Below are positions 5,140 through 53,635 of a stretch of 53,635 nucleotides of DNA, in pieces (positions within the stretch are counted from its first letter, which is position 1; every line of letters starts with the position of its first letter). The notes under the pieces are model-generated. The model was not told where the DNA came from, did not search any database, and was given only the letters and a program-made list of their open reading frames with translations. The position numbers and the translations under genes are program-made. Source of the stretch: a virus; UHGV virus genome UHGV-1680239; one strand, written 5' to 3'.

Positions 5140-5250
5140 TATTGCATCTCTTAGCTACTGACTAATGCGTTCTATTTTACACATAAGTTTTTAATCAATT
5201 TAACAGGCTCAAAGTGTAGAGCTTCTGGGCGTCTAAGACGACAAGTTATG

Positions 5251-5305
5251 CCTGCTTCTGTATATATAAATAATAAGTAACTTATTAAATATATACGGAA
5301 GCAGG
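5251..5305. repeat. 55-bp near-perfect palindrome with AT-rich centre (copy 1 of 2)
   Basis: CCTGCTTCTGTATATAT...ATATACGGAAGCAGG; the same element, with shared left flank, recurs at 51889-51947. Confidence 0.7.
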
Positions 5306-11519: not shown

Positions 11520-11731
11520 TCGTATTAAGTAAAAGGGAGAAAGAAACGCTTCATGAAATCAGTAAGTGGCCGGAGTTCCCTGAGTACTGGAAGCCTAAAA
11601 CGCGAGCTAAGTTAGAGCGTTTAGGGTTGGTTGCAAACGTTTCTGAAACGTGGTGCTCGGCCAACTACCAGTTAACTGATAAAGGGAAAGTATTGCTACA
11701 GCAATTAGTAGAATCAGGAGTGTTAAAATGA
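11516..11731 (+). CDS. small hypothetical protein (possible winged-helix fold)
   Basis: 71 aa; coupled to the ligase stop; wHTH-like KLERLGLV...YQLTDKGKVLL. Confidence 0.4.
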   Translation: MIVLSKREKETLHEISKWPEFPEYWKPKTRAKLERLGLVANVSETWCSANYQLTDKGKVLLQQLVESGVLK

Positions 11732-11880
11732 TTCCATACATCTCATTAGCTTTTATGGGTGGCTTCCTTATCGGCTTCGGCATCTGTCGTGATTTAATTA
11801 AGCAGGAACTTAAAACCAAAACACTGTGCATCGGAAAGCGTGTGTATCGGGTAGTTCATGAAACAAAGGTTAGAAAATGA
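11728..11880 (+). CDS. small membrane protein (about 50 aa), not in the ORF track
   Basis: ATG 11728 overlaps the upstream stop, TGA overlaps the next ATG (11877); one predicted TM helix. Confidence 0.3.
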   Translation: MIPYISLAFMGGFLIGFGICRDLIKQELKTKTLCIGKRVYRVVHETKVRK

Positions 11881-12679: not shown

Positions 12680-12945
12680 AAGACAGGATTGTTGTGTAGG
12701 TTTAACCACTGTTGCCATTGGTGCCTGTTTTCACAACAAATGATTCCATACATCACATTGTATAAATTATAAAGTAGGTGCTGTCCTCAGAAACATCATC
12801 TACTTAAAGATTTTGCCTTCTACTATTGAGCGAAGTCGAAAGCGTCTGGCACTAACGAAAAGTGCAAGTAGCGGTGCGTTTCCTGGCAGAAACTAAACCG
12901 TCGCGATTGGCACTGTTGAGTAATAAATACTGGCAGTGCTGAATT

Positions 12946-13020
12946 GATGGTGTAGCTCAGCGGTAGAGCAGTTGGCTGTTAACCAACTGGTCGGTGGTTC
13001 GAATCCACCCACCATCGCCA
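12946..13020 (+). tRNA. tRNA-Asn (anticodon GTT)
   Basis: Hand-folded cloverleaf: acceptor GATGGTG/CACCATC, D-arm GCTC-AGCGGTA-GAGC, anticodon loop CTGTTAA, T-arm GGTGG-TTCGAAT-CCACC, encoded CCA. Confidence 0.85.
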
Positions 13021-13025
13021 ATTTA

Positions 13026-13112
13026 GGGGAGTTAGTCCGTAGGGGCAGCGGGGTAGACTGTAAATCTACTGTCATTGCGACTCGGGTGGTTCGACTCCAT
13101 CACTCCCCACCA
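13026..13112 (+). tRNA. tRNA-Tyr (anticodon GTA), long variable arm
   Basis: Acceptor GGGGAGT/ACTCCCC, anticodon stem-loop GTAGA-CTGTAAA-TCTAC, T-loop TTCGACT, encoded CCA; D-arm geometry slightly atypical. Confidence 0.75.
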
Positions 13113-13116
13113 AATT

Positions 13117-13192
13117 GCCGGTTTAGCTCAGTTGGTAGAGCGCCTGCCTTGTAAGCAGGATGTCAGCGGTTCGATCCCGTTAACCGGCACCA
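13117..13192 (+). tRNA. tRNA-Thr (anticodon TGT)
   Basis: Acceptor GCCGGTT/AACCGGC, D-arm GCTC...GAGC, anticodon loop CTTGTAA, T-loop TTCGATC, encoded CCA. Confidence 0.85.
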
Positions 13193-13278
13193 ACACAACA
13201 GGTAAGAGCATTGGGCGAATCGGCGATACTGACCCACAAGCCCGTAAATCGATAGAGTCAGACCAGTGCTCTTACCGT
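13193..13278 (+). repeat. long hairpin element B, abutting the 3' end of tRNA-Thr
   Basis: Arms CACAACAGGTAAGAGCA / TGCTCTTACCGTTGTG with one bulge. Confidence 0.5.
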
Positions 13279-13333
13279 TGTGAGGAAGTGCAGCTCTTTG
13301 AAGCAACCAGAAGATAAGCATCTGGCTTCACAA

Positions 13334-13412
13334 CACAACGATAAGATCATTACGGTTAATCGTCGTTCATGTGCACAATGACTGGTCGAAAGGTAGTGAT
13401 CTTACCGTTGTG
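13334..13412 (+). repeat. long hairpin element C
   Basis: Arms CACAACGATAAGATCA / TGATCTTACCGTTGTG with one mismatch. Confidence 0.5.
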
Positions 13413-13512
13413 ATGAATGCACAGGCTGATGTGCCGCAACTACAGTAGTGCGCGCTTTGCGGGGCTTGCTACAACCCTGTGTCGGAGTTCAGCACCGACC
13501 ATCACAATAGCT

Positions 13513-13599
13513 GGAGAGTAGGGAGCATGGTGCTCAAGCGGTCTTGAAAACCGTCCCATTGCGCAAGCGATGATGGTTCGATTCCATTACTCTCCGCCA
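13513..13599 (+). tRNA. tRNA-Ser (anticodon TGA), long variable arm
   Basis: Acceptor GGAGAGT/ACTCTCC, anticodon stem-loop GCGGT-CTTGAAA-ACCGT, T-arm GATGG-TTCGATT-CCATT, encoded CCA. Confidence 0.8.
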
Positions 13600-13601
13600 G
13601 A

Positions 13602-13679
13602 CACAGCGTTGAGCGGTTTGGCCTTTTAATCACCCAGATTAAGACTCCGCTAACATAAACCAGACCGCTCAACGCTGTG
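13602..13679 (+). repeat. long hairpin element D, abutting the 3' end of tRNA-Ser
   Basis: 16-bp perfect arms CACAGCGTTGAGCGGT / ACCGCTCAACGCTGTG. Confidence 0.5.
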
Positions 13680-13754
13680 ATAGACAATTACGGCAGACGT
13701 TCTTAACCATAGCTTGCTAACATCCTAGCAACACTTTTTTTCAGCGCAAAATTC

Positions 13755-13777
13755 AAAGGGGCTTCGGCCCCTTTTTT
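13755..13777 (+). terminator. rho-independent terminator closing the tRNA island
   Basis: GGGGC-TTCG-GCCCC hairpin followed by TTTTTT. Confidence 0.65.
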
Positions 13778-13820
13778 GCAACTGAAAGAGTCAAGTCTAC
13801 GAACTTTGTAGGAAGAAATA

Positions 13821-14171
13821 ATGACCAGCAAAGATAACACACCACTAAAAGTCACCCCTGAACACATTGAACAACTCATTCAAAGTGAACATTATTTCAC
13901 TGCATATGATGCCAGCCACGGGGATAACTTCATCTCTGTTTACAATTCAAAAACAGATATCGACAAAGGTCATGAGTCGTTAAAACTCTTAACGTTCTGC
14001 GTTATGGTTCTCAAAAATGGATATACCGTAACGGGAAAATCTGCGTGCGTAAGACCAGAAATCTTCAACTTTGATGTTGGTCGCGAGTACGCTCGAAAAG
14101 ATGCTATCGATCAAATCTGGCCCCTGGAAGGCTATCTCCTGAAGCAAAAGTGGCATGAGGCAAAGCAATGA
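13821..14171 (+). CDS. hypothetical protein
   Basis: 116-aa ORF, stop overlapping the glutaredoxin start. Confidence 0.45.
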   Translation: MTSKDNTPLKVTPEHIEQLIQSEHYFTAYDASHGDNFISVYNSKTDIDKGHESLKLLTFCVMVLKNGYTVTGKSACVRPEIFNFDVGREYARKDAIDQIWPLEGYLLKQKWHEAKQ

Positions 14172-14413
14172 CGATCACTATCTACGGACGAGATAACTGC
14201 TCATACTGCAAACGTGCGGTCGAGCTGGCGAAGCAACTAAAGGGACATGGCTACGGTGATTATGAGTACATCGACATCACCACTGCCGGTATCGATAAGG
14301 AAAAACTTAGCGAAATTGTTGGTAAACCGGTAGAGACGATCCCCCAGGTGCTGATCGATGGCCAGCCGATTGGCGGATACACAGAATTTGCTGCTTTTGC
14401 GAGCACTCTGTAG
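14168..14413 (+). CDS. glutaredoxin (NrdH/Grx-like)
   Basis: 81 aa with active-site CSYC near the N-terminus and a thioredoxin-fold pattern. Confidence 0.8.
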   Translation: MTITIYGRDNCSYCKRAVELAKQLKGHGYGDYEYIDITTAGIDKEKLSEIVGKPVETIPQVLIDGQPIGGYTEFAAFASTL

Positions 14414-14508
14414 TACAATACGGCTCCTTTTGGGGCCATTTATTATTTGTAGCTTTCATCAGCACAGCGTACACTTAGTTACGAGCCATTGAGTAGTTAA
14501 GAGGTTTT

Positions 14509-15117
14509 ATGCGTTTAGAAAATTGCCTAGAAGATATGAGTGTCATTAGCAATGCCCTTGCTACTGTGACCTCTAACGCTTCACGCTTTTCAAACGCAAA
14601 GCCTACAGCTAAATCTGGGCGTGATTTTATTGAACCGCGTGGATATCGACGCTTCCGTGGCACGATGAAGCCCTCTGCGAAATTCACAGGATTCAAAACA
14701 CAAACCTATGTGAGCACTGCGGCTATTCCTGTTCAAGAGAACCGCGATGCGGCACAGCTGGCAAAGATTGAAAGCAAGCTCGCAGAATTGACGGCGAAAC
14801 ACGTTCGCTTAGCCCATGCCATCTCTGGATGGAAAGCGGAAAAGATTCGCAGCAACTTCGGTGAAAGTCGTTACGAAGAACTGAAGAACGTTGACCTGAC
14901 CATTCGTGGTTTGGAGGGATTCGTTAACAAGTTGATTCGCGACTCTGAGCAACCTCATCCATATTTGAAACGCTTGAGCGATTCTGTAACTGAGTATCGT
15001 TTAGCTATCTCTGATCTGCTATTGATTTTAAATCAGTGTTTTAACGACGTAAACGTCATCGAATCGCAGACTGGCCTCATTGATGAGGACGTCTTCGCCA
15101 ACTTCTCATTCCATTGA
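14509..15117 (+). CDS. hypothetical protein immediately upstream of a YafO-like toxin gene (candidate cognate antitoxin)
   Basis: 202-aa ORF with RBS; 9-nt gap to the next gene; not YefM/Phd-like by eye. Confidence 0.5.
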   Translation: MRLENCLEDMSVISNALATVTSNASRFSNAKPTAKSGRDFIEPRGYRRFRGTMKPSAKFTGFKTQTYVSTAAIPVQENRDAAQLAKIESKLAELTAKHVRLAHAISGWKAEKIRSNFGESRYEELKNVDLTIRGLEGFVNKLIRDSEQPHPYLKRLSDSVTEYRLAISDLLLILNQCFNDVNVIESQTGLIDEDVFANFSFH

Positions 15118-15126
15118 GGTTGAACG

Positions 15127-15537
15127 ATGAAGATCACATGGAACAGTGATAGTTACGCCCAATTTTTAAAGCCGACCTTCGATATAAAGCCTGACTTAGA
15201 GATTACGTTACTCAACGATTTCAAGTCGTTTAAACAAGGCATGTACCCAGCCATATTCGGCAAAGATGGCCCGTATACGGCTCCTGGTGCTATCGTGTCC
15301 TCCCGCGTCTATCACGTTCATCTCTTGTTCACGAAGCAAGAACGAACCAGCAGCCGCAGCAGATTCAATTGCACAAGCGACCGTGCACTCGTTTACAGTC
15401 AACATGCACATTTCCAAGATGTGTATAGCCTATTGGCAATCTCCCCTAACAACGCACATCAGTACGCGAAAGATCCAAAAATTATGGTCGATATCGCTGC
15501 CTACGCGGCCGCATTTCAAGCTCTCACTAACCCTTAA
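15127..15537 (+). CDS. YafO-like toxin (candidate ribosome-dependent mRNA interferase)
   Basis: 136 aa; segments FGKDGPYTAPG...VYHVHL and ALVYSQHAHFQDVYSLLAI...AHQYAKD resemble E. coli YafO as I recall it. Confidence 0.5.
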   Translation: MKITWNSDSYAQFLKPTFDIKPDLEITLLNDFKSFKQGMYPAIFGKDGPYTAPGAIVSSRVYHVHLLFTKQERTSSRSRFNCTSDRALVYSQHAHFQDVYSLLAISPNNAHQYAKDPKIMVDIAAYAAAFQALTNP

Positions 15538-15710
15538 CAATCATATTAATAACGCCTCAGAATTTAAATTCCTCCCTTAAATGATTCCATACCTACTATG
15601 TATGGAATCATTACTGAAAATGAGTTACTTTGACTCTTGATCCTATAAGAATCTATGCCTAATATACTGTTTACTTATACAGTACATCGGCGTAACTCGG
15701 TGATTGTCAT

Positions 15711-16814
15711 ATGAAAAATAGCTTTGACAGAGCACGCGCAGCGGAGAACACCTCAAAAGAGGCGATTGAGTATCTCGAAAGAGCATCTCAAATGCAGGCA
15801 GTTATGATCTCCCAGGTCAGCAATGACATGAGATTCTCGGACGCATTCATGTTATTCACTCGCTTATCTCTGCTGATAACCAGACGTCGGCCAGAGATCG
15901 CTGTTCATTGTATTTTGATACATGTTTTGCCGCACATTGCCGATGTAAAAGTAAGTGACATTAATAGGTTCATGGTGAACCAACTGGTCAACCCACTAAT
16001 ACTGGATGGCAAAATTGTTATGGGCCGCCGCGTTTTCTCTCTGATGAAGCAGTTCCTTAGCTGGTGTGCCTTCCAGGGGATGATCGACGTATCACCGTTA
16101 AACGATATGTCACTAAACAAAGTTGCCGGTGGCGCAAAGCCCACACCTCGCGAGCGGAAGCTGACCGACGCAGAGGTATGGGTGTTCTGGAATATCTGGG
16201 ACTACTTCAATGTGTGCGCAGGTACAAAATGGGCGGCCAGGCTATGTCTTGTATCCGCAAGACGACCTGATGAAGTACTGCGGGCTAAAAAAAGTGAGTT
16301 CAATCTTAAGCGTGGGGTTTGGAATCAAGGCAAAAGAAACAAGTCAGCACGTGAGCATTCGCTGCCTTTAAGCACATTAATGCGCACATGCATTGAAGAG
16401 TTGTTCGAATACGGTAAAGATAGCCAGTGGCTCGTTCCTTCGAATAAAAAAATCGGGAAAGACCTTCCTATGTCTAAAGTGGCAATAGCCCAGGCATTAC
16501 GTCGTATTCTGGAACGACCAGAACTGATGGAGCTTGAGCCATTTACACCCCGAGATTTGCGCCGTACTGCGCGTAGTTACTTCCCAGCATTAGGCATAAG
16601 CCAGGAGGTATCACGTAAAATCATGAACCACAGTCTTGAGGGGATAGATCGGGTCTACGACCGGCACGATTATATGGACGAGATGCGAGACGCCTTAGAA
16701 AGTTTCTCGACGTACATCGCATCAATCGTAGAGCAACCGGATTTAGACGAAATTGACCACAAATTTAAGGGAGATCGTCTATCAACAGAGCTTATTCGTG
16801 TAAATTTTTCATAG
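15711..16814 (+). CDS. tyrosine site-specific recombinase (integrase or resolvase)
   Basis: C-terminal catalytic signature PRDLRRTARS ... NHSLEG ... VYDRHDY (R..R, H..R, Y). Confidence 0.8.
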   Translation: MKNSFDRARAAENTSKEAIEYLERASQMQAVMISQVSNDMRFSDAFMLFTRLSLLITRRRPEIAVHCILIHVLPHIADVKVSDINRFMVNQLVNPLILDGKIVMGRRVFSLMKQFLSWCAFQGMIDVSPLNDMSLNKVAGGAKPTPRERKLTDAEVWVFWNIWDYFNVCAGTKWAARLCLVSARRPDEVLRAKKSEFNLKRGVWNQGKRNKSAREHSLPLSTLMRTCIEELFEYGKDSQWLVPSNKKIGKDLPMSKVAIAQALRRILERPELMELEPFTPRDLRRTARSYFPALGISQEVSRKIMNHSLEGIDRVYDRHDYMDEMRDALESFSTYIASIVEQPDLDEIDHKFKGDRLSTELIRVNFS

Positions 16815-17195
16815 AGACTTTATGGCCTCAACAACCTTTTGTGATGCGCCTTTCTCTTTACCGAATCGCTCGTTATATGCAGCAAGAACCTGTTTTTCGT
16901 CCTCGTTAAGAGGAGCAGTGCCTTCTTTGTATAAAAATGCTGCGAGTTCGGGTTGGCGTTCTTCCAGCACCATCATCATAAGACGACTTGGCTCAATACC
17001 CAGTGCCAGCGCCAGCGGACGAACCTTATCGATAGGCAAAGGAATTTTGCCGCTTTTAATTAAAGAAAGGTTGTTGGCGTTTTTATACCCAATTGTTTTG
17101 GCTATCTGGGCCTGGCTCATAGGTGAGGATTCAATCAACCCTGCGATAAAAGCAGCGTAGCGACTTTCTATAAATTCAATCTTGTTATCAGACAT
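16809..17195 (-). CDS. XRE-family helix-turn-helix transcriptional regulator (repressor-like)
   Basis: N-terminal HTH SQAQIAKTIGYKNANNLSLIKSGK; convergent with and overlapping the recombinase 3' end; divergent from a small ORF. Confidence 0.75.
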   Translation of the reverse strand: MSDNKIEFIESRYAAFIAGLIESSPMSQAQIAKTIGYKNANNLSLIKSGKIPLPIDKVRPLALALGIEPSRLMMMVLEERQPELAAFLYKEGTAPLNEDEKQVLAAYNERFGKEKGASQKVVEAIKSL

Positions 17196-17446
17196 GGTTA
17201 CAACCTTTGCGCGTTCAATTCTCTCTGGTAAGTGCTTACTGATATTACATCAAAGGTTAGGGTTGTAAAGCTATTATCATTTTTTTCGATAGGCACTTAA
17301 AAGACCGGTTAAAGGCCATTGCACGGAGAAAAATTAGCCCAAAATAGGTAAGAAAATCAACTTGCATATGATATGAATGTATTCAGTATTGATACAAATT
17401 TTAGTAGTATTCCTTACCATAGTATAAGTTAGAATGGATTGATTGA

Positions 17447-17659
17447 ATGAAAACCACTATTTCCAGCCTAATCGCTCTTGAGATCGGACACGTACAGAAA
17501 TTAGCTGATGAGTGTGTAGCTGACATCCTCACTGATCTACCGAATGAGCAGATTCAGGTTGGTGTGAATGACACAACTGGCTTTATATTCGAACTTAACA
17601 ACAAACGCTTCACGCTTCTCAATACCGGCTCCGGGTCTTTAGCCGTCAGAATCTGTTAA
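17447..17659 (+). CDS. small hypothetical protein divergent from the XRE regulator
   Basis: 70-aa ORF followed by a 9-bp-stem hairpin (17672-17704). Confidence 0.35.
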   Translation: MKTTISSLIALEIGHVQKLADECVADILTDLPNEQIQVGVNDTTGFIFELNNKRFTLLNTGSGSLAVRIC

Positions 17660-17757
17660 CCCCTCTTCTCCCTGCGCGAATGGCTTAGTTCCCTGTTCGC
17701 GCAGTGCTACATTAAACAAACTAGTAAATAATTTGTTTTCATAACAAAGGATTAGCC

Positions 17758-19866
17758 ATGTCTAAAAAACGTTCCATCAAAGAGGTTCAGGACTTCCGTG
17801 ACAGTGTAAAACGAGTAGTCGCTCTCCTTTCAGGTAAAAACATCCCTGTTGCAGAACGAGGGGACGACGCTTATGTACGCTATAACGATGATGGAGAGCC
17901 AATTCTCGTAAACATCCCATCAATCCCGGATAACGCAACACCGGCATTGATGAATGCTGTGCGCGGATTTCTCGATCATGAGGTTGCTCACATTTTGTTT
18001 ACCGATATTCGTGTGTCCAACAAAATGAGAGAAAAAGGACGCGTTCCTTCCTGGTCGCTATGGAATGCCTTAGAAGACGTGTTCATCGAGCGAAAAATGG
18101 GTCAGGTCTTTAACGGAACAAGACGTAATCTGATGGCAACTCAGCGCCTTATAATCGAAAAAGTCTTTAAACCAAAGGCTTCAGAGGCTATTGCTTATTG
18201 TGGCAAAGATCAGCGCGCGCTTTTTCTAAACTTCTTTCTCTGTCCGGTTGTAAGAGCCTGGGATGGCCAAGCACCGTTCGTAGATTTCATGGATGAATAT
18301 TGGCCTGTCATTGAGAAACCAATTTCATTATTAAAAGAACATGGTATCGATGTGGCCGTGCGTAACATGTCTTGCACCGAGGATTGTGTAAAGGTGGCTG
18401 CAACCATAGCTAAGATCCTCAAAGACACTGAAAGTGAAAGCAAAGGTAAGGAGTCAGCTCCGGGAAAAACTTCCGATCCTTCAGACGCTGACCAGACGGA
18501 TGCCTCTGGAGAAAATAATGAAGATAACGAAGATCATGAGACATCCTCAGCGTTAGATAATCACAAATCTATCAAACCAGAATCACACAGTAAGCACAAA
18601 CATGATAATAACGACAGTGATGATTCAGATAATTCTGAATCATCAGAGACAATATTCAATGATACAGAAAATGATAAAGAGGTATCAGATTCTGGTGCTT
18701 CTGATAACGCGGCGTCAGAATCATTTACCACTGACCACGAAAAAAGAAAATCGACAGAAGACGGCTCTTCAGACATACCAACTCCGTCAAAAATGAGTCT
18801 GGAAGAGGCTTTAGAGGAGTTGGATAGCATGGAAGATGAAGTCGGAGGCATGACAGAAGATGCGCTATCCGAAACGATTAAAAGCGAGTTAACAGAAAGC
18901 TCGAAAAGCGAATACAGGCCATACAATCGCTCATACGACTTCATCGGCTCGATTGATCAGGCAGAAGCCCATATCAAACGGCTTATTAAAACATTCTCCG
19001 ATATTGATTTAGGTGGATATCCAATCAGCCGTTATCGCATCGTTCCTGAAGGCAACCAACTCTTCGACAAATATATTGAAAAGCACCTTTCGTCAGGTGT
19101 TTCGTCGACGCTGGCAAAAGACCTGGAACGTGCAATAGCAAGCAGAAACAGAGTTCAGTTTATACCTGGCCAGCGTCGGGGGCGCATTCATGGTTCAAGT
19201 ATCTACAGATTAACAATGAATGATGATCGCGTGTTTCGTAAAAAAGAAGAATCTAAAGCCGTTAACGCCTGTGTTCAACAAGTGATTGATTTATCTGGTT
19301 CAATGAGTGGCGAAACGATAAAACTAGCTCTTGCAAGTGCATATACCATCGCCGATGCACTTGATCGAATAAATGTTCCCAACATTATCACCGGCTTCAC
19401 TACATTTGGCAGTCATATGGCAGCAGGAGAACTTAAGGCTATCAAATATGAGTTCTCTCGCTTTGAATCTTTAATGCTACCTATCATCAAAAATTGGAAT
19501 GAAAAAGCAAATTCTCGCGAAGTTCGCTCACGTATGGGGTGCGTAGGCTACACATTCCCACTTCTTAATAACGTGGATGGTGAAAGCATAGCCAGCCTTG
19601 CATCGTTATTTTCCGGTCGCATGGAGGACAGGAAGATCATGCTTGTTCTGAGCGATGGCGAGCCGTGGGCTGTTGGGAGAGGTTTTGACGCTCATTTGCG
19701 TTCGGTTGCGAAGCAAATTGAAACGCAGACTGACATTGATTTGATGGCAATTGGCATCATGACTGACGCACCGGAGAGATTTTACTCAAATCATGCCCTG
19801 GTAACGAGCGTTGATAGTCTTGGTTCATCTGTAGTTACTGAACTATCTCGTATCATTTTGAAGTAA
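17758..19866 (+). CDS. CobT-like von Willebrand factor A (vWA) domain protein with long acidic Ser/Asp/Glu-rich linker
   Basis: MIDAS motif DLSGSMSG in the C-terminal domain; low-complexity acidic region over about 18420-18900; followed by an AAA+ ATPase gene. Confidence 0.65.
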   Translation: MSKKRSIKEVQDFRDSVKRVVALLSGKNIPVAERGDDAYVRYNDDGEPILVNIPSIPDNATPALMNAVRGFLDHEVAHILFTDIRVSNKMREKGRVPSWSLWNALEDVFIERKMGQVFNGTRRNLMATQRLIIEKVFKPKASEAIAYCGKDQRALFLNFFLCPVVRAWDGQAPFVDFMDEYWPVIEKPISLLKEHGIDVAVRNMSCTEDCVKVAATIAKILKDTESESKGKESAPGKTSDPSDADQTDASGENNEDNEDHETSSALDNHKSIKPESHSKHKHDNNDSDDSDNSESSETIFNDTENDKEVSDSGASDNAASESFTTDHEKRKSTEDGSSDIPTPSKMSLEEALEELDSMEDEVGGMTEDALSETIKSELTESSKSEYRPYNRSYDFIGSIDQAEAHIKRLIKTFSDIDLGGYPISRYRIVPEGNQLFDKYIEKHLSSGVSSTLAKDLERAIASRNRVQFIPGQRRGRIHGSSIYRLTMNDDRVFRKKEESKAVNACVQQVIDLSGSMSGETIKLALASAYTIADALDRINVPNIITGFTTFGSHMAAGELKAIKYEFSRFESLMLPIIKNWNEKANSREVRSRMGCVGYTFPLLNNVDGESIASLASLFSGRMEDRKIMLVLSDGEPWAVGRGFDAHLRSVAKQIETQTDIDLMAIGIMTDAPERFYSNHALVTSVDSLGSSVVTELSRIILK

Positions 19867-19961
19867 TTAAAACAGCCTTAATGATAAGTAACTACTTACC
19901 ATAGTTAATGGTATATTTATATAAGAACTTGAACGCTCATTAGAGAACAAAGGAAAAGCGC

Positions 19962-21377: not shown

Positions 21378-24300
21378 ATGAAGGCACTGATGGTTCGAAC
21401 TGACTTCTCACTTGGGGAGTCGGCTCTAAAAGCAGAAAACGCGGTGAAGATTGCCAGAGAAGCTGGCTACACCGCTGTAATTTCAGCAGATAGCATGAAT
21501 ATTGCGAGTGTTATTCCACTACAACGTGCCGCTGGTGACGACATGGCGGTTATTTGTGGTGTGAAACTAAACATTGTTGATGATCCCACATACGAGCACC
21601 GGGCTAAACTTGCTAAAGAATCTATGAGATGTATGGAATCATTAGAGCGGGGACGTAACTACTCGTTTACCGCTCTAATTAAAAATGAGCAAGGATATCG
21701 CGACATCTGCGAACTAATGACGGTGGCCAACACACGAGAACAGTTCTACTTTGTACCGCGTCTCTCGCTCGAACAGTTGGTTTCTACATATGCCAAAGGC
21801 AACATCATCCTGCTCACTTCCGACATCGGTAGCGTGTTCCAACGCAACGATTTTGCAAAAATCATAAGCTCACTGATTACAGCGGGCGGGAAAGACAACT
21901 TCTATAGCGTGGTTTATCCGCACCCTACCCCATTCTACGACCAGATTAACGTCCGGGCGATGAAAGTAGCCAGCGCACTGAAAATAGAGCCAGTAGCGTT
22001 TTATCCCGCTTATTACGAATCGATCGACGATGCTGACATTAAAGACATTGCGCACATGGTTACGAACAACATCAAAATCGACCAGCCGCATCGTCTGCGT
22101 ATCCCCCACCAGCGAGATAACGCCATCAATGGTCGTCGCCATCTCCTTGAGGCGCTTAAAGCCTTCTCCGTTCGCATGGATGTGCCGGTAACAGCTGCAA
22201 TGGCCTCAACAACGCAGGACTCCATTATCGATGCCTGCACATGGCGCTGGCATGAATTGCCACCAGCACTGCCCAAGATGGCAGACGACGAACCTGCAAC
22301 GCTGATGAAACTGGCTGTTGAAGGGCTGCGTAAACGTCTTACCACAAAAGAGTTTGGATACACACCACCTGCTTCTGAGAACAGGGTTTATGTTGAGCGG
22401 CTAAAGTACGAAATGGACACGCTGACTCGCCTGGGATTTTGTGGTTACTTCCTGATGGTACGCGATCTGATGAATCACAGCCGTGAAACTGGCATTCCTG
22501 TCGGGCCTGGTCGTGGTTCCTCTGCCGGTTCTCTGGTGGCGTGGTGCATAGGCATAACCAACGTCGACCCAATCCGTCACGGTCTTCTGTTTGAGCGTTT
22601 CATCAACCCTGAGCGTCTCGACTTGCCGGATGCGGACTTGGACTTCAGCCAGGCACGTCGCCATGAGGTGATCGAGTATCTGAATGAACGCTACGGCGAA
22701 GATTACGTTGCAGGCATTCCGAACTTCACCTATCTGGGCGCGGCATCTGCGCTGCGTGACACTGCACGTATTTACGGTGTCGATGCTGCGGATATGGCGG
22801 TATCCAAAGAGTTCAAGAATATGGAGGACGACAGCCTGTCTCTGGAAGAGCTGCGCGAACAACTGGCAAGTCTCGACAAATACGCAACAAAATATCCTGA
22901 TGCATTCAATGCAGCCTGCAAGTTACAAAGCCTTATGCGTGGCTTTGGTAGACATGCGGCAGGGATGATCGTAGCAGGTGTTCCTCTGACAGAACGTACA
23001 CCGGTTGAGCGCCGTGGTGACGCGCGTTGTATCGCATTTGACAAGCGTTACTGCGAGGCTATGGGCCTAATTAAGCTGGACGTGCTTGGCCTGGCAACTC
23101 TCGATTTGCTCGATAGTGCAAAACGCTACATAAAAGAGAACACAGGTGAAGATATCAATCTTGATGCCATTTCTCTTGAAGATCGCAAGGTGCTGGATGG
23201 TTTTGCTGCTGGGTACACTCAAGGTGTTTTCCAGCTTGAATCAGGCCCAATGCGCAAGCTGCTTAAAGATTTAGGTGGTGGAATTGAGCCAATGAGCTTT
23301 AAAACGGTCGTCGCTACAACTGCGCTCTTCCGGCCGGGGCCAATTCAATCAGGCATGTTGGATGACTATGTTTCTGTCGCCAAAGGCTTTATGACGCCGG
23401 AATCATTACACCCCGTTCTTGATGAACTTACCGCGGAAACAAATGGCGTGATTCTCTATCAGGAACAGACGATGAACGCGACTCGATTGCTTGCCGGCTT
23501 CACAATGGCTGAAGCTGACGCTGTGCGTTCCGCAATCGGTAAGAAGAACATGGAAAAAATGAAGAGCATGGGCGAGAAGTTCATCGTTCAGGCTCAAGCT
23601 GGCTGGATAGACGTTGAGCTGGAAGATGGCACTACACAGCGCATTCACCGTGCGGAACATTTTAAATGCGAAGACGGAACTCTGAAAACTGTCGAAGAGG
23701 CGTTGGAGCATGGAGTGAAGCTGCCAATGCCAGTTGTGCGCGTTACAACGTCACATCCAGGTCTGTCTGAGACGAAGGCAAAAGAGATATGGACTGCATT
23801 TGAGAAAAACGGAGCCTATCAGTTCAATAAATCACACTCCGTTGCTTATTCTTTAATCAGTTATCAGTCTATGTGGCTAAAGACGCACTACCCTGCTGAG
23901 TTCTTCGCAGCTGCGCTCACCATTCTGGGCGAGGATAAGCATCAGGGGCTGGTGAAGGATGCGCTGACCTATGGCATTCGCGTATTGCCACCAGACGTTA
24001 ATGTGTCATCTAACCGAATTGAGATCCGCACACTCGAAGACGGCAGTCAGGCACTGTATGCGCCATTCTCTGCTGTGAAAGGCTGTTCTGAAAATGGTTG
24101 TCAGGCAATTATGCGTGCGCGTGAGAAAGTTGGTGGCAAATTCGAGTCAGTGGCACAATTCGATGAAGCGGTCGAGAAGCGTGCATGTAACAGTCGTGTA
24201 CGCGAGTCGCTTCATAAAGTAGGGGCTTTTGCGTCAATTGAGCCAGGCAGTCTGCCAGCAACTGATCCTGAACGACTGCGCGACCAGGCTGAGCTGATGG

Positions 24301-33965: not shown

Positions 33966-34449
33966 AACCACTGCGGTGAGTAGTCTGCTCACCGCATTCG
34001 TATCCAGCTCATTATCCACTGTAGTCAGTAACAAAACCTTCCTACATATCTGCTAACCACTGTAGCGAGTAGACAGCCTTTCATTCGCATCAAACAACCA
34101 CTATGGTGAGTATTGGAGTGAGATGTCCAGCGGGTATCCACTATGGTGAGTAAGCCTTTGCTGTTTTCAGTGGATATCCACTCGCCACAGTGGATACGCT
34201 CAAAGATGAGGGCGACAACAACCACTATAGACAGTAAATTTTCCAAGATACCCAGTGACCACTAACCTCGCAGCCCTTGTTTCATCAGTGTTAGTGATCA
34301 CTAACATTTAATTCAGTATTTGCATTCTACTGCCTACAGTGGTTATCAACAGATAACGATACTCACTATAGTGGATAGCGAATTACAGATATAAGTAAGG
34401 CTCACTACAGTGGATAGTGAGCCTTACTACTAACTACAGTGGTTGGGCT
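33966..34449. repeat. iteron field downstream of repA (incA-like), about 10 copies in both orientations
   Basis: Repeated units such as AACCACTGCGGTGAGTAG, TATCCACTGTAGTCAGTAAC, AACCACTATGGTGAGTAT and their complements (CTACAGTGGATAG). Confidence 0.7.
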
Positions 34450-35503
34450 ATTTGCGAGTCTTTGCCTTGCGCAACTCTTCGAGAAGCGCCAGTTCTTCTT
34501 TACTCAACATGACCATTTTGCCTTCTTTTTCGTCAGGCACAACGTCGATAATGTCATCTTGATTCTCATCTGGGAGGCTATATTCCGTCTCATCATTATC
34601 GATTTTTGTTGATATTTGTGCCTGGCGTAACTTTGGCCGCCTATAGTGGATGACGAAGTAGACCGAGTTTCCGCGCTTAACTTCCGTGTAATCGAGATAT
34701 CCTATCTCTCGCAGCTGTTCCATAGCCTTTCTTACCGTCGCATTCTGAGTAATAGTGCGACTTGTTAGATTAAGTCTGGCGCGTAAACGGGCTAGTGATA
34801 TTGGTGCCGGATCAGGCGGCAAACTTTCAATAAAAGTATAAAGCGCCTGAGCGGATTCTTTTCTTGAGAGTTCGTTTATAGCCCGGAGTTGCAGAAGAAC
34901 CTTTTTGTCGAACTGGTAGAGTTCGAAAATCTTGGGATCTGCTTTCAGTTCGACCGTATCGTGCTTGACACTATATTTTGCCGTTTGCACAAGATGCGTT
35001 ACGTAAAACTCATCAGAGCCTTTGCTACGGAACGAGATGGTATTTGTGGCAATACGGCTTAGCGAACTGTCCAGGCGTTTGCGTAACTTCGCTGATGACC
35101 TGGCGGTCGGAATGCCACACAGCCTTACAAACTCAACGAACGGCAACGTGACAGTATCGCCAACGACCTTGTGTTTGGCAAACGCGTGGATTATTCCCAC
35201 CCACGTTTTAAAGTCGTTATCCATATCAAGCCGAAGGCCAGAGATCCTTATGTCTTCGTACCCTTCGGCTTTTGCCAGAGACAGCTGTTTGAGTTCAGCA
35301 GAGGCATCCATAGAGACCATTTGCCCCTTTCTTCCTCTGGATGTCGATTTCAGCGTCGGAACGAAGAGGCCCAGACGCATCAAAGCAACAGGCTGAACAG
35401 TGTTATTAGTGTTAGGAACCAACATAACAACTTCGCCTGTCTTTTTATCTGTTTCTGAAAATGCTTCAACGATCGCTATGTTTTTATTGCCGTTTTCGCT
35501 CAT
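34448..35503 (-). CDS. repA: iteron-binding plasmid replication initiator RepA (P1/RepFIB-like)
   Basis: 351 aa; [16 protein letters not shown] ... [25 protein letters not shown] resemble P1 RepA as I recall it; gene flanked on both sides by iterons. Confidence 0.75.
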
Positions 35504-35548
35504 TCCAAATGTCTCTTGTTATTCGACGGCTTTGGTGGCCTTTGCTGA

Positions 35549-35670
35549 TTACAGTGGATAGTAGCACTCATCACAGCGGTTATCCTACCGTCTATAGTGG
35601 TTTTTCTCCTCTCTATAGTGGTTGCTTTGCTCCCTATAGTGGATTATTCGCTCTCTATAGTGGATATCGA
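35549..35670. repeat. iteron array upstream of repA (incC-like), about 6 direct repeats with 21-bp register
   Basis: TATAGTGG cores at 35594, 35614, 35635 and 35656 (spacing 20-21 bp) plus two degenerate copies. Confidence 0.7.
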
Positions 35671-35699
35671 TCATGTCTGAAGGCAGATGGCACAACGGT

Positions 35700-35790
35700 T
35701 TGAGGTGGGCGGGGATCTTATTGGGTCTTTATGGGTCTCTTTGGTTCTCTTTGTGATCTGAATTACTGGATCGGGCCTGTGGATAAAAAT
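35700..35790. promoter_or_regulatory. GATC cluster with consensus DnaA box (origin-like segment 1)
   Basis: GATC at about 35714, 35755 and 35769; TGTGGATAA (complement TTATCCACA) at 35778-35786; AT-rich stretch and two 8/9 DnaA boxes follow to about 35930. Confidence 0.5.
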
Positions 35791-35946
35791 CAGAGGATTT
35801 CAAGAACAGGTAACTCTACTCTTCTGTGGATATTTAAGGACATAAGAATCATGACTAAGAGTAGAGTTTAAAATATATCTATGTATATCAGTATGTTAAT
35901 GAAGAATTAAGTCATTAAGTTATCCATAAAAGACAATGTGCTCTAC

Positions 35947-36050
35947 TCTCTACAGTGGATATATACAGCTCTCCAGAGTGGTTGTTTTACTCTTCATAGC
36001 GGTTATTCAGCTCTCTACAGAGGTTTCTTTGCTCTCCATAGTGGATGGCA
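35947..36050. repeat. second iteron array (5 repeats, 21-bp spacing)
   Basis: CTCTCTACAGTGGAT, CTCTCCAGAGTGGTT, TCTTCATAGCGGTT, CTCTCTACAGAGGTT, CTCTCCATAGTGGAT. Confidence 0.65.
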
Positions 36051-41694: not shown

Positions 41695-41723
41695 TTGATA
41701 GGTAAGTGCTTATCTATTAATAT
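41695..41723 (+). promoter_or_regulatory. sigma70-type promoter (TTGATA-17 bp-TAATAT) whose spacer is the recurrent palindromic motif
   Basis: TTGATA at 41695-41700, spacer GGTAAGTGCTTATCTAT, TAATAT at 41718-41723; a 7-bp hairpin (41724-41746) lies before the nrdA ATG. Confidence 0.5.
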
Positions 41724-41762
41724 GGGCCACTAAATATAGTGGCCCTCTTTATTTGGTGATAC

Positions 41763-51090: not shown

Positions 51091-51273
51091 CGTTCCCCTA
51101 CTGAAAATAAAGCCCATAGAGAGCTTTATATTGCTGGGTAAGCCAATCACATACCCAGCACCACAAAAACGCGCCAGAGAGCTTCTCGTTTGCATTTCTG
51201 GCGCGTTTTATTTGATTGCCAGACATAAAATCAAATGCAAAAATAGGTAATCACTTACCTATCGAGAAAGAAG

Positions 51274-51888: not shown

Positions 51889-51947
51889 AGCCTGCTTCTG
51901 TATATATAAATAACTACATATTAATTATTAATATACGGAAGCAGGCT
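51889..51947. repeat. palindromic element, copy 2 of 2
   Basis: AGCCTGCTTCTGTATATATAAATAA...ATATACGGAAGCAGGCT; shares stem and left flank (CTGG(G)CGTCT) with the element at 5251-5305. Confidence 0.7.
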
Positions 51948-53462: not shown

Positions 53463-53635
53463 GTAAGTGTTTACCTATCATTTTAAATCATGTATCTTAT
53501 CGGCGTCAGGATGACAATGTGTCGGTAAGACACAGTTCCAGGATGGAACGAGAAAGGCGGGGGGGGGGTTTCCCCCCCCAAACTTTTTTCCCCCGGGGGG
53601 GGGGGCCACACCCCCAGCAAACAACTCTTCCTTCC

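Follow-up and report, generated by a model that had tools for sequence, protein, structure and literature searches.

Among described recombination systems, the closest to the locus reported here are Cre/loxP of the phage-plasmid P1, XerS/difSL, and ResD/rfsF of the F plasmid, in which a tyrosine recombinase without an arm-binding domain acts on two inverted arms of ~13 bp separated by an asymmetric spacer of 6–8 bp. The recombinase of our locus, Int, would fit this description: it likewise has no arm-binding domain, the spacer of its candidate site measures 7 bp, it resides on a plasmid-borne element where its likely job is multimer resolution or circularization, and its site adjoins its gene, as in XerS/difSL. 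Other points of reference come from phage switches. Non-cleavable repressors are inactivated via LexA-controlled partners in 186 (CI/Tum), N15 (CB/AntC), and Gifsy and SPC32H (Rep/Ant); convergent or antisense control is represented by the pR/pL interference of 186, the OOP RNA of lambda and sar of P22; and P1 possesses the C1 repressor with dispersed operators (asymmetric 17-mers), together with the 69-aa antirepressor Coi. To our knowledge, a LexA-controlled promoter of the kind proposed below for int has not been described for Cre, XerS or ResD. A LexA-repressed promoter was reportedly found by Guerin et al. 2009 for the integron integrase IntI.

The int-xre-orf70 locus analyzed here lies in a window of 53,635 nucleotides (virus genome UHGV-1680239), which derives from an E. 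coli phage-plasmid of the SSU5 type. This widespread family comprises the relatives of Salmonella phage SSU5, Y. pestis pMT1 and S. Typhi pHCM2. We interpret the locus, with a confidence only slightly better than even for the explanation as a whole, as a conserved control module of SSU5-family phage-plasmids with four parts: a resolvase with its site, a LexA switch, an XRE repressor and a trigger based on convergent transcription. The pairing of site and recombinase, the conservation of the LexA box and promoter, and the position of the putative operator are read from sequence and its comparison between lineages, and data published for an element with a 98% identical module indicate that xre is expressed in the lysogen and that int and orf70 rise in SOS-inducing conditions. 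The features of the locus are as follows:

15580–15612, no strand assigned: candidate recombination core site, with arms AATGATTCCATAC (15580–15592) and GTATGGAATCATT (15600–15612) and the 7-bp spacer CTACTAT (15593–15599)
15637–15665, plus strand: putative int promoter, -35 TTGATC (15637–15642), 17-bp spacer, -10 TAATAT (15660–15665)
15665–15684, no strand assigned: predicted LexA (SOS) box TACTGTTTACTTATACAGTA, starting on the final base of the -10 and spanning the expected int transcription start
15711–16814, plus strand: int, tyrosine recombinase without an arm-binding domain, 367 aa
16809–16814: tail-to-tail overlap of int and xre, 6 bp (TCATAG) including the stop codons
16809–17195, minus strand: xre, all-helical HTH protein without an S24 peptidase domain, 128 aa
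17227–17240, no strand assigned: operator-like palindrome GGTAAG-TG-CTTACT, next to the xre promoter -10 on its downstream side
17242–17269, minus strand: xre promoter found by the promoter scan, -35 TTTACA, 16-bp spacer, -10 TAATAT
17368–17412, plus strand: conserved block upstream of orf70 found in the alignment, TGATAT..ATTC..TATTGATACAA..TAGTAGTATT
17447–17659, plus strand: orf70, acidic protein of 70 aa, the first rightward gene
17672–17704, plus strand: hairpin between orf70 and cobT, 12-bp stem, MFE -17.6 kcal/mol

At the DNA level the module is 97.6–98.7% identical to that of Escherichia phage Cyrano/pLF82 and, within the same range, to those of ~190 E. coli plasmids typed IncFIB; a tblastn search with int retrieved 933 plasmid records, including Y. 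pestis pMT1, S. Typhi pHCM2 and resistance-carrying elements. The gene order, with int and xre facing each other in a tail-to-tail overlap of 6–11 bp and orf70 pointing away from xre, recurs in the E. coli, Klebsiella, Yersinia pMT1, Salmonella pHCM2, Enterobacter and Citrobacter lineages, and because of this recurrence we do not regard the layout as due to chance. Relatives from Xenorhabdus and Photorhabdus contain the convergent int/xre pair without the overlap and without a LexA box. The initial annotation had placed the 3' overlap, the divergent 70-aa ORF, the AT-rich spacer between xre and orf70 (17196–17446, 251 bp, 33.5% GC vs 46.0% in the whole window) and a motif within this spacer correctly; the motif coincides with the conserved palindromic site over the xre transcription start, and the recurrence among lineages bears out the idea that the phage-plasmid carries a conserved module for regulation and recombination. 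The database record of SSU5, which has been termed a virulent phage (PMC5427195), is devoid of exactly the stretch from after tRNA-Asn to the stop codon of orf70, i.e. int-xre-orf70. No RNA family was matched within 15300–17900 in Rfam, and PADLOC yielded no defence-system match at the locus.

XRE was assigned to the HTH regulators on the basis of a weak match to Pfam HTH_19 (19.7 bits, below the 30.2 cutoff), a match to PHROG 8 "transcriptional regulator" (1.3e-11) and an AlphaFold2 model with eight helices (pLDDT 79.6), for which the top Foldseek matches all belong to the XRE family (Stl, C-proteins, HigA, SPC32H Rep; probability 1.0, with weak E-values of ~1e-2). A sequence comparison with all PDB chains returned nothing useful, and no S24 peptidase (cleavage) domain was matched in this 128-aa, all-helical protein. 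XRE is 100% identical to CYRAN_45, the RNA of which was reported at ~10-fold over the prophage background in the LF82 lysogen. Taking together the sequence, the model and this published expression, we propose that XRE is probably the repressor of the plasmid (lysogenic) state. A toxin-antitoxin pair formed by xre and orf70, with XRE of the HigA type, was also considered and rejected: the two genes are divergently transcribed, xre being monocistronic between the convergent int and the divergent orf70, and orf70 matches no toxin family.

The xre promoter is conserved in 8/8 aligned lineages, and the palindrome at 17227–17240, which covers the xre transcription start, is the most conserved intergenic block in all of them. 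GGTAAGTGCTTACTG (17227–17241) finds 11 matches in the window at up to three mismatches, where 1.04 are expected and none of 100 shuffles gave more than 3, and related palindromes occupy the intergenic positions 644, 19887, 41701, 51246 and 53462. We infer that XRE binds these elements: it would limit its own synthesis via the GGTAAG-N2-CTTACY palindrome at its transcription start, and would probably also act on the related palindromes before replication and nucleotide-metabolism genes. The competing interpretation that fares best, which we consider doubtful but deserving of serious weight, is that the GGTAAG-N2-CTTACC palindromes are promoter elements, sites of another phage protein (a middle-gene activator, cf. 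the P1 late promoters and Lpa) or RNA hairpins in polycistronic mRNA, and that XRE binds something else. SSU5, which has no XRE, still has the palindrome between cobT and cobS, and so the palindromes may indeed belong to another protein or be promoter elements; the same copy is kept in a lineage with a 41%-identical XRE. Moreover, all palindromes outside the xre promoter are located between co-directional plus-strand genes, several are directly followed by TAT-rich, -10-like hexamers, and the one at 51246 leaves only 14 nt to the start codon that follows. On the other hand, it is the sequence of the palindrome, rather than just its pairing potential, that is conserved among sites and lineages, and its best copy coincides with +1 of the xre promoter, as would be expected of an operator for autoregulation. 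The recognition helix of XRE is as invariant between lineages as the palindrome, while the rest of the protein is only 56–66% identical, and the divergent lineage L011 carries repeats of a related half-site (TAAGTAAC) adjoining its xre.

The int promoter was read from the sequence and scores 8/12 in the promoter scan, under the threshold of 9/12, but its hexamers and 17-bp spacing are kept in E. coli, Klebsiella, pMT1, pHCM2, Enterobacter, Citrobacter and a divergent Klebsiella lineage. The near-consensus LexA box next to it (TACTGT-N8-ACAGTA) is the only CTGT-N8-ACAG in the window. CTGT and ACAG are retained, with variable AT-rich spacers, in 9/9 SSU5-type loci, at -43 to -45 from the int ATG (-32 in the divergent Klebsiella lineage), and a box is also present in three of four further species-level SSU5-type loci, the fourth (L036) having a degenerate one (CTGA); none was found at the int homologues of megaplasmids. 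The related 112-kb plasmid pEC16-2 contains only two strong LexA boxes, the second of which fronts an S24-peptidase (humD-like) gene.

Expression of the module could be followed in published RNA-seq data on Cyrano in LF82, the element with the 98% identical module. Between 6 h in vitro and 6 h in macrophages, an environment described as SOS-inducing, int rises by +4.2 and orf70 by +4.7 (log2), compared with sulA +2.6, umuD +4.8, umuC +3.0 and the S24 gene +3.1. These data are supportive rather than specific, because many other Cyrano genes also go up in macrophages (including toxin-antitoxin modules and CYRAN_60/61) and because the 1 h in vitro sample also has elevated int RNA without elevated sulA or umuD. 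Cyrano was reported to be induced 39-fold by ciprofloxacin and SSU5-like phage-plasmids by mitomycin C; no phage particles are produced in macrophages despite the induction of int and orf70. The predicted LexA box would place int under SOS control, with which the published expression data agree without being specific for it.

According to the mechanism that we propose, host LexA keeps the int promoter repressed and int transcription would increase during the SOS response, while XRE is a repressor that cannot be inactivated by self-cleavage. The SOS-induced int transcripts would run antisense through xre towards orf70; such read-through is expected from the overlapping convergent ends of int and xre, where no conserved terminator was found on either strand. 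In this way DNA damage could tip the switch, with repressor output going down and orf70 going up, and the small acidic orf70 product may act on the repressor. The RNA-seq data contain no direct sign of interference on xre, whose RNA falls by only 0.4–0.5 log2 from 1 h to 6 h in macrophages, similar to other maintenance genes. The only terminator-like plus-strand hairpin within xre (17035–17051) was considered as the int terminator and dropped, as it is disrupted in close and distant relatives alike. In its most far-reaching version, which we put forward with considerable reserve, the resolvase promoter itself senses DNA damage: cleavage of LexA would send int transcription antisense through the gene of the non-cleavable repressor into orf70 and flip the element from the plasmid to the lytic state, one promoter would couple recombinase supply to induction, and Int with its 33-bp site would constitute a new orthogonal Cre/lox-like pair.

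The product of orf70 has a pI of 4.75, and its acidic charge argues against a Cro-like role. It matches PHROG 2627 "unknown function" and no other family in the Pfam, PHROG and NCBIfam profile searches, and its AlphaFold2 model (pLDDT 52.6) is too poor to use or to justify a fold search. The protein is confined to this family, with 46–54% identity between lineages; its homologs were encountered on short fragments and on contigs of up to ~113 kb, the size of plasmids or phage-plasmids, and on none of chromosome size. At 6 h in macrophages orf70 RNA slightly exceeds that of int, and orf70 therefore probably has a promoter of its own; neither the promoter scan nor the lineage alignment revealed a convincing sigma-70 promoter for it, and it has no LexA box of its own. 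The block at 17368–17412, judging from its conservation, may regulate orf70 or contain its promoter. Cyrano RNA falls ~30-fold from orf70 to cobT in macrophages, and the hairpin at 17672–17704, to which an equally placed hairpin corresponds in pHCM2 and SSU5 although its stem differs in sequence, is a probable attenuator or terminator. The role of orf70 as an anti-repressor is a guess.

A more modest account of the module, which seems to us unlikely, and somewhat less likely to be right than the non-operator reading of the palindromes, treats it as housekeeping: Int would be only a multimer resolvase, the LexA box would tune it to times of high RecA when dimers form, XRE would be a local regulator of orf70 or of itself rather than a master repressor, the overlap would reflect genome compaction, and SOS induction would pass through another gene. 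It fits with the megaplasmid homologs of int, which work alone with neither XRE nor a LexA box, with the box-less convergent pair of Xenorhabdus and Photorhabdus, with the lack of a specific drop of xre RNA when int rises, and with the annotation of other regulators elsewhere in these elements (CYRAN_37, CYRAN_114, SSU5_054). It is less easily reconciled with the distribution of the LexA box, found only in lineages that combine int with xre and orf70 and not where Int does resolution alone, or with the 112-kb relative, where the only other strong box fronts a humD-like gene and not an antirepressor. Nor would it explain why the phage is SOS-inducible although XRE lacks a self-cleavage domain, or why exactly the int-xre-orf70 block is missing from virulent SSU5.

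The recombination part of the four-part explanation centers on the perfect 13-bp inverted repeat at 15580–15612, ~100 bp upstream of int. Its arms are invariant and its spacers variable in all SSU5-type lineages, and the Pantoea and Rahnella homologs of int have TGACTCCAGAC-N7-GTCTGGAGTCA at the same position, with the 7-bp spacer kept; since the changes occur in both arms, their symmetry is preserved (covariation). A scan of 185,579 species genomes revealed 58 species-level genomes with the site, one site per locus, and in 57/58 of them, the lone int genes on Pantoea and Rahnella megaplasmids included, an int homolog lies 40–150 bp away. The 13-7-13 geometry, shared by the distant homologs with their covarying arms, matches that of simple-site recombinases. 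The palindrome is thus very probably, as far as comparative analysis can tell, the lox/dif-like site of Int. A second full or degenerate site, as needed for inversion, excision or cassette capture, was found neither in the window nor in the cargo regions of five relatives nor in the complete 112-kb relative, and three additional single-arm copies scattered nearby have no partner arm above background. Variable cargo borders on the conserved module at this palindrome; the region on its cargo side is hypervariable and contains YafO and AbiGi in the window and, in pMT1, the caf operon of the F1 capsule.

The same palindrome can fold into an RNA or DNA hairpin (-16.2 kcal/mol), and its location at the border of cargo and module could suggest a terminator, insulator or RNA-processing hairpin, for which the covariation of the arms is as fitting as for a dimer-binding site. 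We consider this very improbable: in most lineages no T-run follows the palindrome on either strand, the association with this recombinase clade holds whatever lies upstream, the fixed 7-bp spacer with arms of 11–13 bp matches the core sites of tyrosine recombinases, and the stems are conserved far past the needs of pairing, only two arm types occurring over 45–100% Int identity.

The lox/dif-like interpretation agrees with the features of Int itself. Residues 172–320 match PF00589 (39.9 bits, cutoff 27.1, E=4.7e-10), and R185 (RxxE), K211, R284, H307 and Y316 (H-x8-Y) are invariant among eight homologs at 45–100% identity, in which the position of the first catalytic His is occupied by an invariant Arg (R281). 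The catalytic residues were assigned from their motifs, there being no solved structure that can be aligned by sequence: single-sequence and profile searches against all PDB chains gave nothing useful. The arm-binding domain PF13356 is absent from Int of the window and from the listed family members down to 44% identity, and was found only in outgroup proteins of 360–464 aa that are at most 34% identical to Int. Homologs at 45–52% identity stand alone on replicons of 0.25–0.9 Mb in Pantoea, Rahnella and Erwinia. Because it has no arm-binding domain and because SSU5-type phage-plasmids are reported to be exclusively extrachromosomal (PMC9600943), Int would appear from its sequence to be a resolvase-type enzyme and not an integrase, and the annotation "integrase" on hundreds of records is probably misleading. 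We propose that Int, through its core-binding and catalytic domains, targets the 12/13-7-12/13 palindrome in the manner of Cre/loxP, XerS/difSL or ResD/rfsF, with two monomers per site and exchange across the 7-bp spacer, and that it resolves plasmid multimers arising from homologous recombination and possibly recircularizes incoming genomes, with no chromosomal integration.

A true integrase acting on a chromosomal attB (e.g. a tRNA gene), with XRE and orf70 as directionality or regulatory factors, is hardly credible to us: the "integrase" annotations, the distant P4/CP4-57-type likeness (NCBIfam P4-integrase domain NF007246, E=1.5e-8, far below cutoff), the tRNA genes 2–3 kb from int and one XRE/Int cluster member listed on an 896-kb contig have to be set against the missing arm-binding domain, a symmetric simple site next to the gene in one copy per replicon, the plasmid-sized or megaplasmid-like nature of 58/58 site-bearing contigs, and the view that the rare chromosomal copies of these phage-plasmids are not integrase-made (PMC12977533). 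Just as remote is an integron-like platform in which LexA-controlled int and the adjacent primary site capture cargo genes and so generate the hypervariable region: the order cargo, site, LexA promoter and int mirrors cassettes, attI, LexA-controlled PintI and intI, relatives that differ in cargo become homologous again at 15574–15581, the left edge of the site, new genes lie directly against it in pJN2-26 and an "empty" grx-site-int form exists, but none of the cargo blocks is bounded by a second site, full or degenerate, purifying selection would by itself suffice to put homology breaks at the edge of the site, and this same "empty" relative took weight from the idea by showing that the cargo junctions are not exact, since the sequence shared by some lineages extends a further ~20 bp leftward of the site.

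Of the roles that the initial annotation offered for the recombinase, multimer resolution is thus the best supported, on sequence grounds, whereas integration is made unlikely by the domain content of Int, by the simple palindrome upstream of its gene and by the reported extrachromosomal state of the elements; tRNA genes are unlikely targets given a candidate site directly upstream of int. The target site that it sought can now be proposed at 15580–15612; this site and the LexA box at 15665–15684 had been missed. Its likening of the locus to a repressor/anti-repressor switch tied to the recombinase, for which it named a simple Xer/Cre-type resolvase among the refuting outcomes, survives in part: the switch half is not refuted, and XRE is a plausible repressor, being expressed in the lysogen and having a conserved palindrome over its own start, while the recombinase half is largely refuted on those very terms.

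SSU5-type phage-plasmids are common in clinical Enterobacteriaceae, and the review and surveys consulted on these elements describe no lysogeny control for the group. The present analysis adds the lox-like site and its pairing with the recombinase, the predicted LexA box on the int promoter, the XRE palindrome at its own start and the SSU5 deletion. The 33-bp candidate target of a new clade of arm-less tyrosine recombinases may serve as an orthogonal Cre/lox-like tool and as a replicon marker, the conserved LexA box would link the antibiotic-induced SOS response to the module, XRE and its palindrome offer a candidate repressor-operator pair, and the natural deletion in virulent SSU5 suggests that the int-xre-orf70 block is needed for the plasmid state.

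Compared with the systems mentioned at the outset, Int differs from Cre, XerS and ResD in having no detectable sequence similarity to any solved recombinase, in R281 replacing the first catalytic His, and in the isolated single-arm copies scattered around its site. With IntI it shares a LexA box in the promoter, a primary site just upstream and variable genes beyond this site; unlike in integrons, no attC-like partner sites or cassette structure were found, and the Int clade is a different one, derived from P4-like integrases and tied to a phage repressor gene. As in 186, N15, Gifsy and SPC32H, the probable repressor is a short HTH protein without S24 in an SOS-inducible element, and the SOS signal would enter via a LexA box on a separate promoter; here, however, the gene with the LexA box is a recombinase converging on the repressor gene instead of a recognizable antirepressor, and orf70 has no similarity to the Tum, Ant or AntC families. 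The face-to-face units, whose overlap could lower the expression of a lysogeny regulator, recall 186 pR/pL, OOP and sar, with the difference that int and xre overlap at the 3' ends of two full genes and that interference between them is proposed. The element resembles P1, another phage-plasmid, in the genome-wide scatter of its operator-like sites and in encoding a protein of ~70 aa beside the repressor gene (cf. C1 and Coi); unlike the C1 operators, the sites are palindromes, sequence similarity is absent, and orf70 is divergent from the repressor gene, whereas coi lies upstream of its repressor gene in the same direction.

Escherichia phage Cyrano (pLF82, a phage-plasmid of E. coli LF82), phage CMS-2020a and ~190 IncFIB-typed E. 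coli plasmids of ~110 kb share 97.6-98.7% identity with the segment 15400-17800, and these E. coli elements are SSU5-type (pSLy3 group) phage-plasmids. Their nearest relatives with annotation have the gene order ligase, tRNAs, variable cargo, glutaredoxin, (cargo), a tyrosine recombinase gene (int), an XRE-type HTH gene on the opposite strand (xre), a 70-aa ORF (orf70), cobT-like, cobS-like AAA ATPase and dnaE. The module is made up as follows:

15711-16814, + strand: int, 367 aa, PF00589 (E=4.7e-10)
16809-17195, - strand: xre, 128 aa, weak match to Pfam HTH_19, PHROG 8 "transcriptional regulator" (1.3e-11)
17269-17242, - strand: xre promoter, -35 TTTACA, 16 bp, -10 TAATAT
17447-17659, + strand: orf70, PHROG 2627 "unknown function"
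17672-17704: hairpin after orf70, 12-bp stem, -17.6 kcal/mol

The initial annotation described a recombinase gene overlapping a convergent regulator gene, with a divergent small ORF across an AT-rich region, and all of these are present: int and xre have 6 bp in common, both stop codons included, and the 251-bp spacer between xre and orf70 has 33.5% GC vs 46% window-wide. The motif instance placed in this spacer was also recovered, as a 15-mer at 17227-17241 from an over-represented family (11 matches at ≤3 mismatches in the window vs 1.04 expected). The same arrangement, with a tail-to-tail overlap of 6-11 bp, recurs in Klebsiella (pJN2-26), pMT1 from Y. pestis, pHCM2 from S. Typhi, Enterobacter, Citrobacter and a divergent Klebsiella lineage, in which the orf70-like ORF is visible and unannotated. 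In relatives from Xenorhabdus/Photorhabdus (Int 47%, XRE 38-49% identity) int and xre are still convergent, with 60-150 bp between them. Homologs of XRE and orf70 are found only on contigs of plasmid or phage-plasmid size (mostly ~100-116 kb) or on short fragments, with the exception of one XRE cluster on an 896-kb contig. The trio is a conserved unit, and the labels "integrase", "transcriptional regulator" and "hypothetical" hide the coherent design of a real module. Identity between lineages is 82-86% for Int, 56-66% for XRE and 46-54% for orf70; thus, XRE and orf70 evolve faster than Int, which would be the pattern usually seen in specificity determinants.

A perfect inverted repeat, AATGATTCCATAC-CTACTAT-GTATGGAATCATT, is located at 15580-15612, ~100 bp 5' of the int start; the chance expectation for a repeat of such quality is ~0.003 per 53 kb (53,635 x 4^-12). 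All SSU5-type lineages share the same 12-bp arms and differ in the 7-bp spacer (CTACTAT, CTATTAA, CTATAGA, or the reverse orientation). Int homologs with 45-52% identity are lone genes on megaplasmids (0.25-0.9 Mb) of Pantoea, Rahnella and Erwinia, next to genes for siderophore receptors, H-NS or chemotaxis, and each of them has TGACTCCAGAC-N7-GTCTGGAGTCA 80-100 bp upstream, with two positions altered in both arms, which preserves the symmetry, and with the spacer length of 7 bp retained. A pattern scan across 185,579 species, each represented by a single genome, for the site with either type of arm returned 58 loci with one site each; an Int homolog is present 40-150 bp from the site in 57 of them, and in the sole exception the site lies 219 bp from the end of the stretch examined. 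This linkage makes it very probable that Int pairs with the site at 15580-15612. The palindrome folds at -16.2 kcal/mol and could possibly be a hairpin or a terminator, a reading that leaves its strict linkage to int unexplained and that fits poorly with the absence of the adjacent T-run in most lineages.

Int has the invariant catalytic residues Arg185, Lys211, Arg284, His307 and Tyr316, and an equally invariant Arg281 stands where the first His would be. The arm-type DNA-binding domain PF13356 is absent from the whole Int clade; the first relatives to carry it are ≤34% identical. According to published surveys, SSU5-type phage-plasmids are exclusively extrachromosomal (PMC9600943) and their rare chromosomal remnants are not integrase-made (PMC12977533). 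Taken together, the site linkage, the arm symmetry, the absence of PF13356 and the extrachromosomal reports suggest that Int is Cre/Xer-like, and it is best read as a resolution recombinase of this type with an adjoining lox/dif-like candidate site. An integrase role for Int and the tRNA genes as its target, both raised in the initial annotation, are very unlikely in view of a clade devoid of PF13356, the symmetric site beside int and elements reported only as extrachromosomal.

Three more exact copies of one palindrome arm, extended to AATGATTCCATACATC[T/A]CAT and without the partner arm, are found in the window:

11727-11745, + strand: single-arm copy
12739-12757, + strand: single-arm copy
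21624-21644, - strand: single-arm copy

This arm is the most repeated 14-mer of the window. The copies are oriented towards the palindrome from both sides; a 50-aa ORF takes its start codon from one of them, and another is antisense within dnaE. SSU5, although without int, has all three at the same places, and none was found near the megaplasmid Int homologs.

The predicted int promoter (-35 TTGATC, 15637-15642; -10 TAATAT, 15660-15665; 17-bp spacing) is overlapped at the last base of its -10 by the LexA box TACTGTTTACTTATACAGTA (15665-15684), the only CTGT-N8-ACAG in the window. The count alone is not unusual (0.72 expected in the window), and the weight of the box lies in its position and conservation. 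Hexamers, spacing and CTGT/ACAG halves are kept in 9/9 SSU5-type loci, the 8-bp centre and flanks being variable, and in three of four further species-level SSU5-type loci; in the remaining one (L036, Buttiauxella) the left half is a degenerate CTGA. Neither the megaplasmid homologs nor the Xenorhabdus/Photorhabdus relatives have the box, and therefore SOS control appears to have been gained by those lineages in which int is joined by xre and orf70. We consider it highly likely that int is under LexA control.

A complete 112-kb relative has only two strong LexA boxes. The second strong box, TACTGTTTATCCATACAGTA, falls outside the window (pEC16-2, NZ_CP074122.1, 83343-83362), directly upstream of a gene for a 129-aa S24 peptidase (humD-like), beside a pol III theta gene, a pair that resembles P1 humD and hot; the Cyrano homolog of the S24 gene, CYRAN_98, has SOS-like expression. 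A ~23-bp repeat, CCTGCTTCTGTATATATAAATAA, at 5250-5273 and 51890-51913, with an inverted partner nearby (5291/51931), holds half of a LexA-like motif (CTGTATATAT) without the ACAG half.

Int and XRE of Cyrano are 99.5% and 100% identical to those of the window, respectively, and RNA-seq values are available for Cyrano in LF82.

Expression of Cyrano genes in LF82, log2(fpkm+5), in the order LB overnight, in vitro 6 h, macrophage 1 h, macrophage 6 h
int: 5.6, 6.1, 8.9, 10.3
xre: 6.6, 7.5, 10.3, 9.9
orf70: 4.3, 6.0, 8.7, 10.8
cobT: 2.9, 4.0, 5.2, 5.9

The macrophage is SOS-inducing according to the authors of these data, and between the two 6-h samples (macrophage relative to in vitro) the same table gives changes of +2.6 for sulA, +4.8 for umuD, +3.0 for umuC and +3.1 for the second LexA-box gene. 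By our reading of the table, int and orf70 both rank in the top ten of the 123 Cyrano genes for induction. Toxin-antitoxin genes and CYRAN_60/61 are likewise up in macrophages, and int is elevated at 1 h in vitro as well, where sulA and umuD are not; the macrophage RNA-seq supports SOS control of int, but not specifically. Ciprofloxacin raises Cyrano virions 39-fold (LF82 literature), and mitomycin C induces Enterobacter SSU5-like elements (literature).

The structure model of XRE is all-helical (8 helices, pLDDT 79.6), and by fold it resembles XRE proteins of a generic kind (SaPI Stl, R-M controller proteins, HigA, SinR, SPC32H Rep, P22 C2; E ~1e-2). No S24 peptidase domain was found in XRE, so it should be unable to self-cleave like lambda CI. 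The identical Cyrano protein, at ~10-fold over prophage background, is listed as a "putative repressor" by the LF82 authors, and we lean towards XRE being the lysogeny repressor. The xre promoter and GGTAAGTGCTTACY, which follows it at once, form the most conserved spacer block in all lineages; the palindrome would cover the transcription start, the place expected for autorepression. The recognition helix region of XRE (GYKNANNLSLIKSGKIPLP) is invariant and the remainder of the protein diverges, which fits the invariant palindrome.

Kin of the xre-promoter site, of the form (ATA)GGTAAG-N2-CTTACC(TAT), are dispersed through the window:

644-657: palindrome
19887-19900: palindrome
41701-41714: palindrome
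51246-51259: palindrome
53462-53475: palindrome

All five are intergenic, between + strand genes, and precede cobS-like, nrdA, dam-like methylase and other genes; within 2 mismatches the pattern has 7 sites vs 1.05 expected in the window. They could serve as dispersed operators like those of P1, or they could be promoter elements. The cobT-cobS copy is kept in SSU5, without xre, and in a lineage with a 41%-identical XRE; because of its retention without xre, the dispersed palindromes may bind another protein or be promoter elements. The palindrome at 41701 abuts a GC-rich hairpin with a T-run behind it (41715-41760, GGGCCACTAAATATAGTGGCCC TCTTTATTT), just ahead of nrdA, which makes an odd combination of an operator-like site and a terminator-like element.

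No match of orf70 to any known family was found; the protein is acidic (pI 4.75, 7.6 kDa), its structure model is poor, and its charge argues against a Cro-like DNA binder. That it is an antirepressor, a guess from position and co-induction with int, seems rather improbable. Cyrano RNA is ~30-fold lower at cobT than at orf70, and therefore orf70 looks like a short unit apart from the replication genes. In pHCM2 and SSU5 a hairpin with a different stem sequence occupies the same place after the orf70 position. In the SSU5 record cobT directly follows tRNA-Asn, and the alignment reveals that the sequence from just after this tRNA to just after the orf70 stop is missing, with the deletion ending just before the retained hairpin. 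SSU5 is referred to as virulent (PMC5427195). The deletion fits a block needed for the plasmid/lysogenic state and dispensable for lytic growth, as a correlation in one genome.

In the plasmid state LexA would hold int low (~5-fold over background in LB), at a level enough for resolution at the adjoining site, and XRE would keep its own level steady and the early genes off. DNA damage would lead to LexA cleavage and a rise of int transcription. A scan of both strands found no terminator (one hairpin-like candidate inside xre is unconserved), so int transcripts should cross xre antisense and reach orf70; we propose that head-on transcription together with orf70 expression might then overcome the non-cleavable repressor. 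Such a convergent-transcription trigger of induction is doubtful: xre RNA goes only slightly down from macrophage 1 h to 6 h, orf70 RNA is slightly above int RNA, and no Cyrano virions are made in macrophages (LF82 literature).

The region from glutaredoxin to the palindrome (~13600-15579) is a cargo hotspot, which in the window holds an AbiGi-like gene, a 202-aa ORF and a YafO toxin gene, and which is preceded by tRNA genes:

12946-13599: four tRNA genes (Asn, Tyr, Thr, Ser)
14509-15117, + strand: 202-aa ORF, no family match
15127-15537, + strand: YafO-family toxin gene, PF13957 (E=2e-21)

The 202-aa ORF is possibly an unrecognised antitoxin. The E. coli chromosomal yafNOP-dinB operon is LexA-regulated; the window-wide CTGT-N8-ACAG scan found no LexA box upstream of the 202-aa ORF/YafO pair. 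In pMT1 (locus L007, 1-2870) the hotspot carries the F1 capsule caf operon, and in other relatives (loci L002, 900-5600, and L017) AraC with chaperone-usher fimbriae or a small gene with very high expression (CYRAN_43, ~720-fold over background); L080 has the "empty" grx-site-int form. The tRNA sets vary as well (Cyrano Asn, Thr, Ser; SSU5 Asn only). Elsewhere in the window, clusters of short iteron-like repeats (CTACAGTGGATA, AACCACTATAGA) are found at 34013-35962, near the repA end, and the same translation-initiation string, (AAAGG)AAAAACACATGA, occurs at five gene starts, dnaE included (7621, 21370, 32912, 37138, 44171).

We found no description of the int-xre-orf70 arrangement in the literature open to search, one possibly relevant 2026 preprint being outside reach. 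We see the module as a variation on known systems, not as a new type. In their predicted mode of working Int and its site resemble Cre/loxP, XerS/difSL and ResD/rfsF, although the Int clade is separate from these, being derived from P4-like integrases with loss of the arm-binding domain. A LexA-controlled tyrosine recombinase with its site just upstream is also reminiscent of integron integrases; unlike in integrons, the cargo junctions are inexact and no attC-like partner sites were found. Finally, the combination of a non-cleavable repressor and a LexA-controlled partner is shared with the antirepressor systems of 186 (Tum), N15 (AntC) and Gifsy/SPC32H, with the difference that in this module it is the recombinase gene that is under LexA control.
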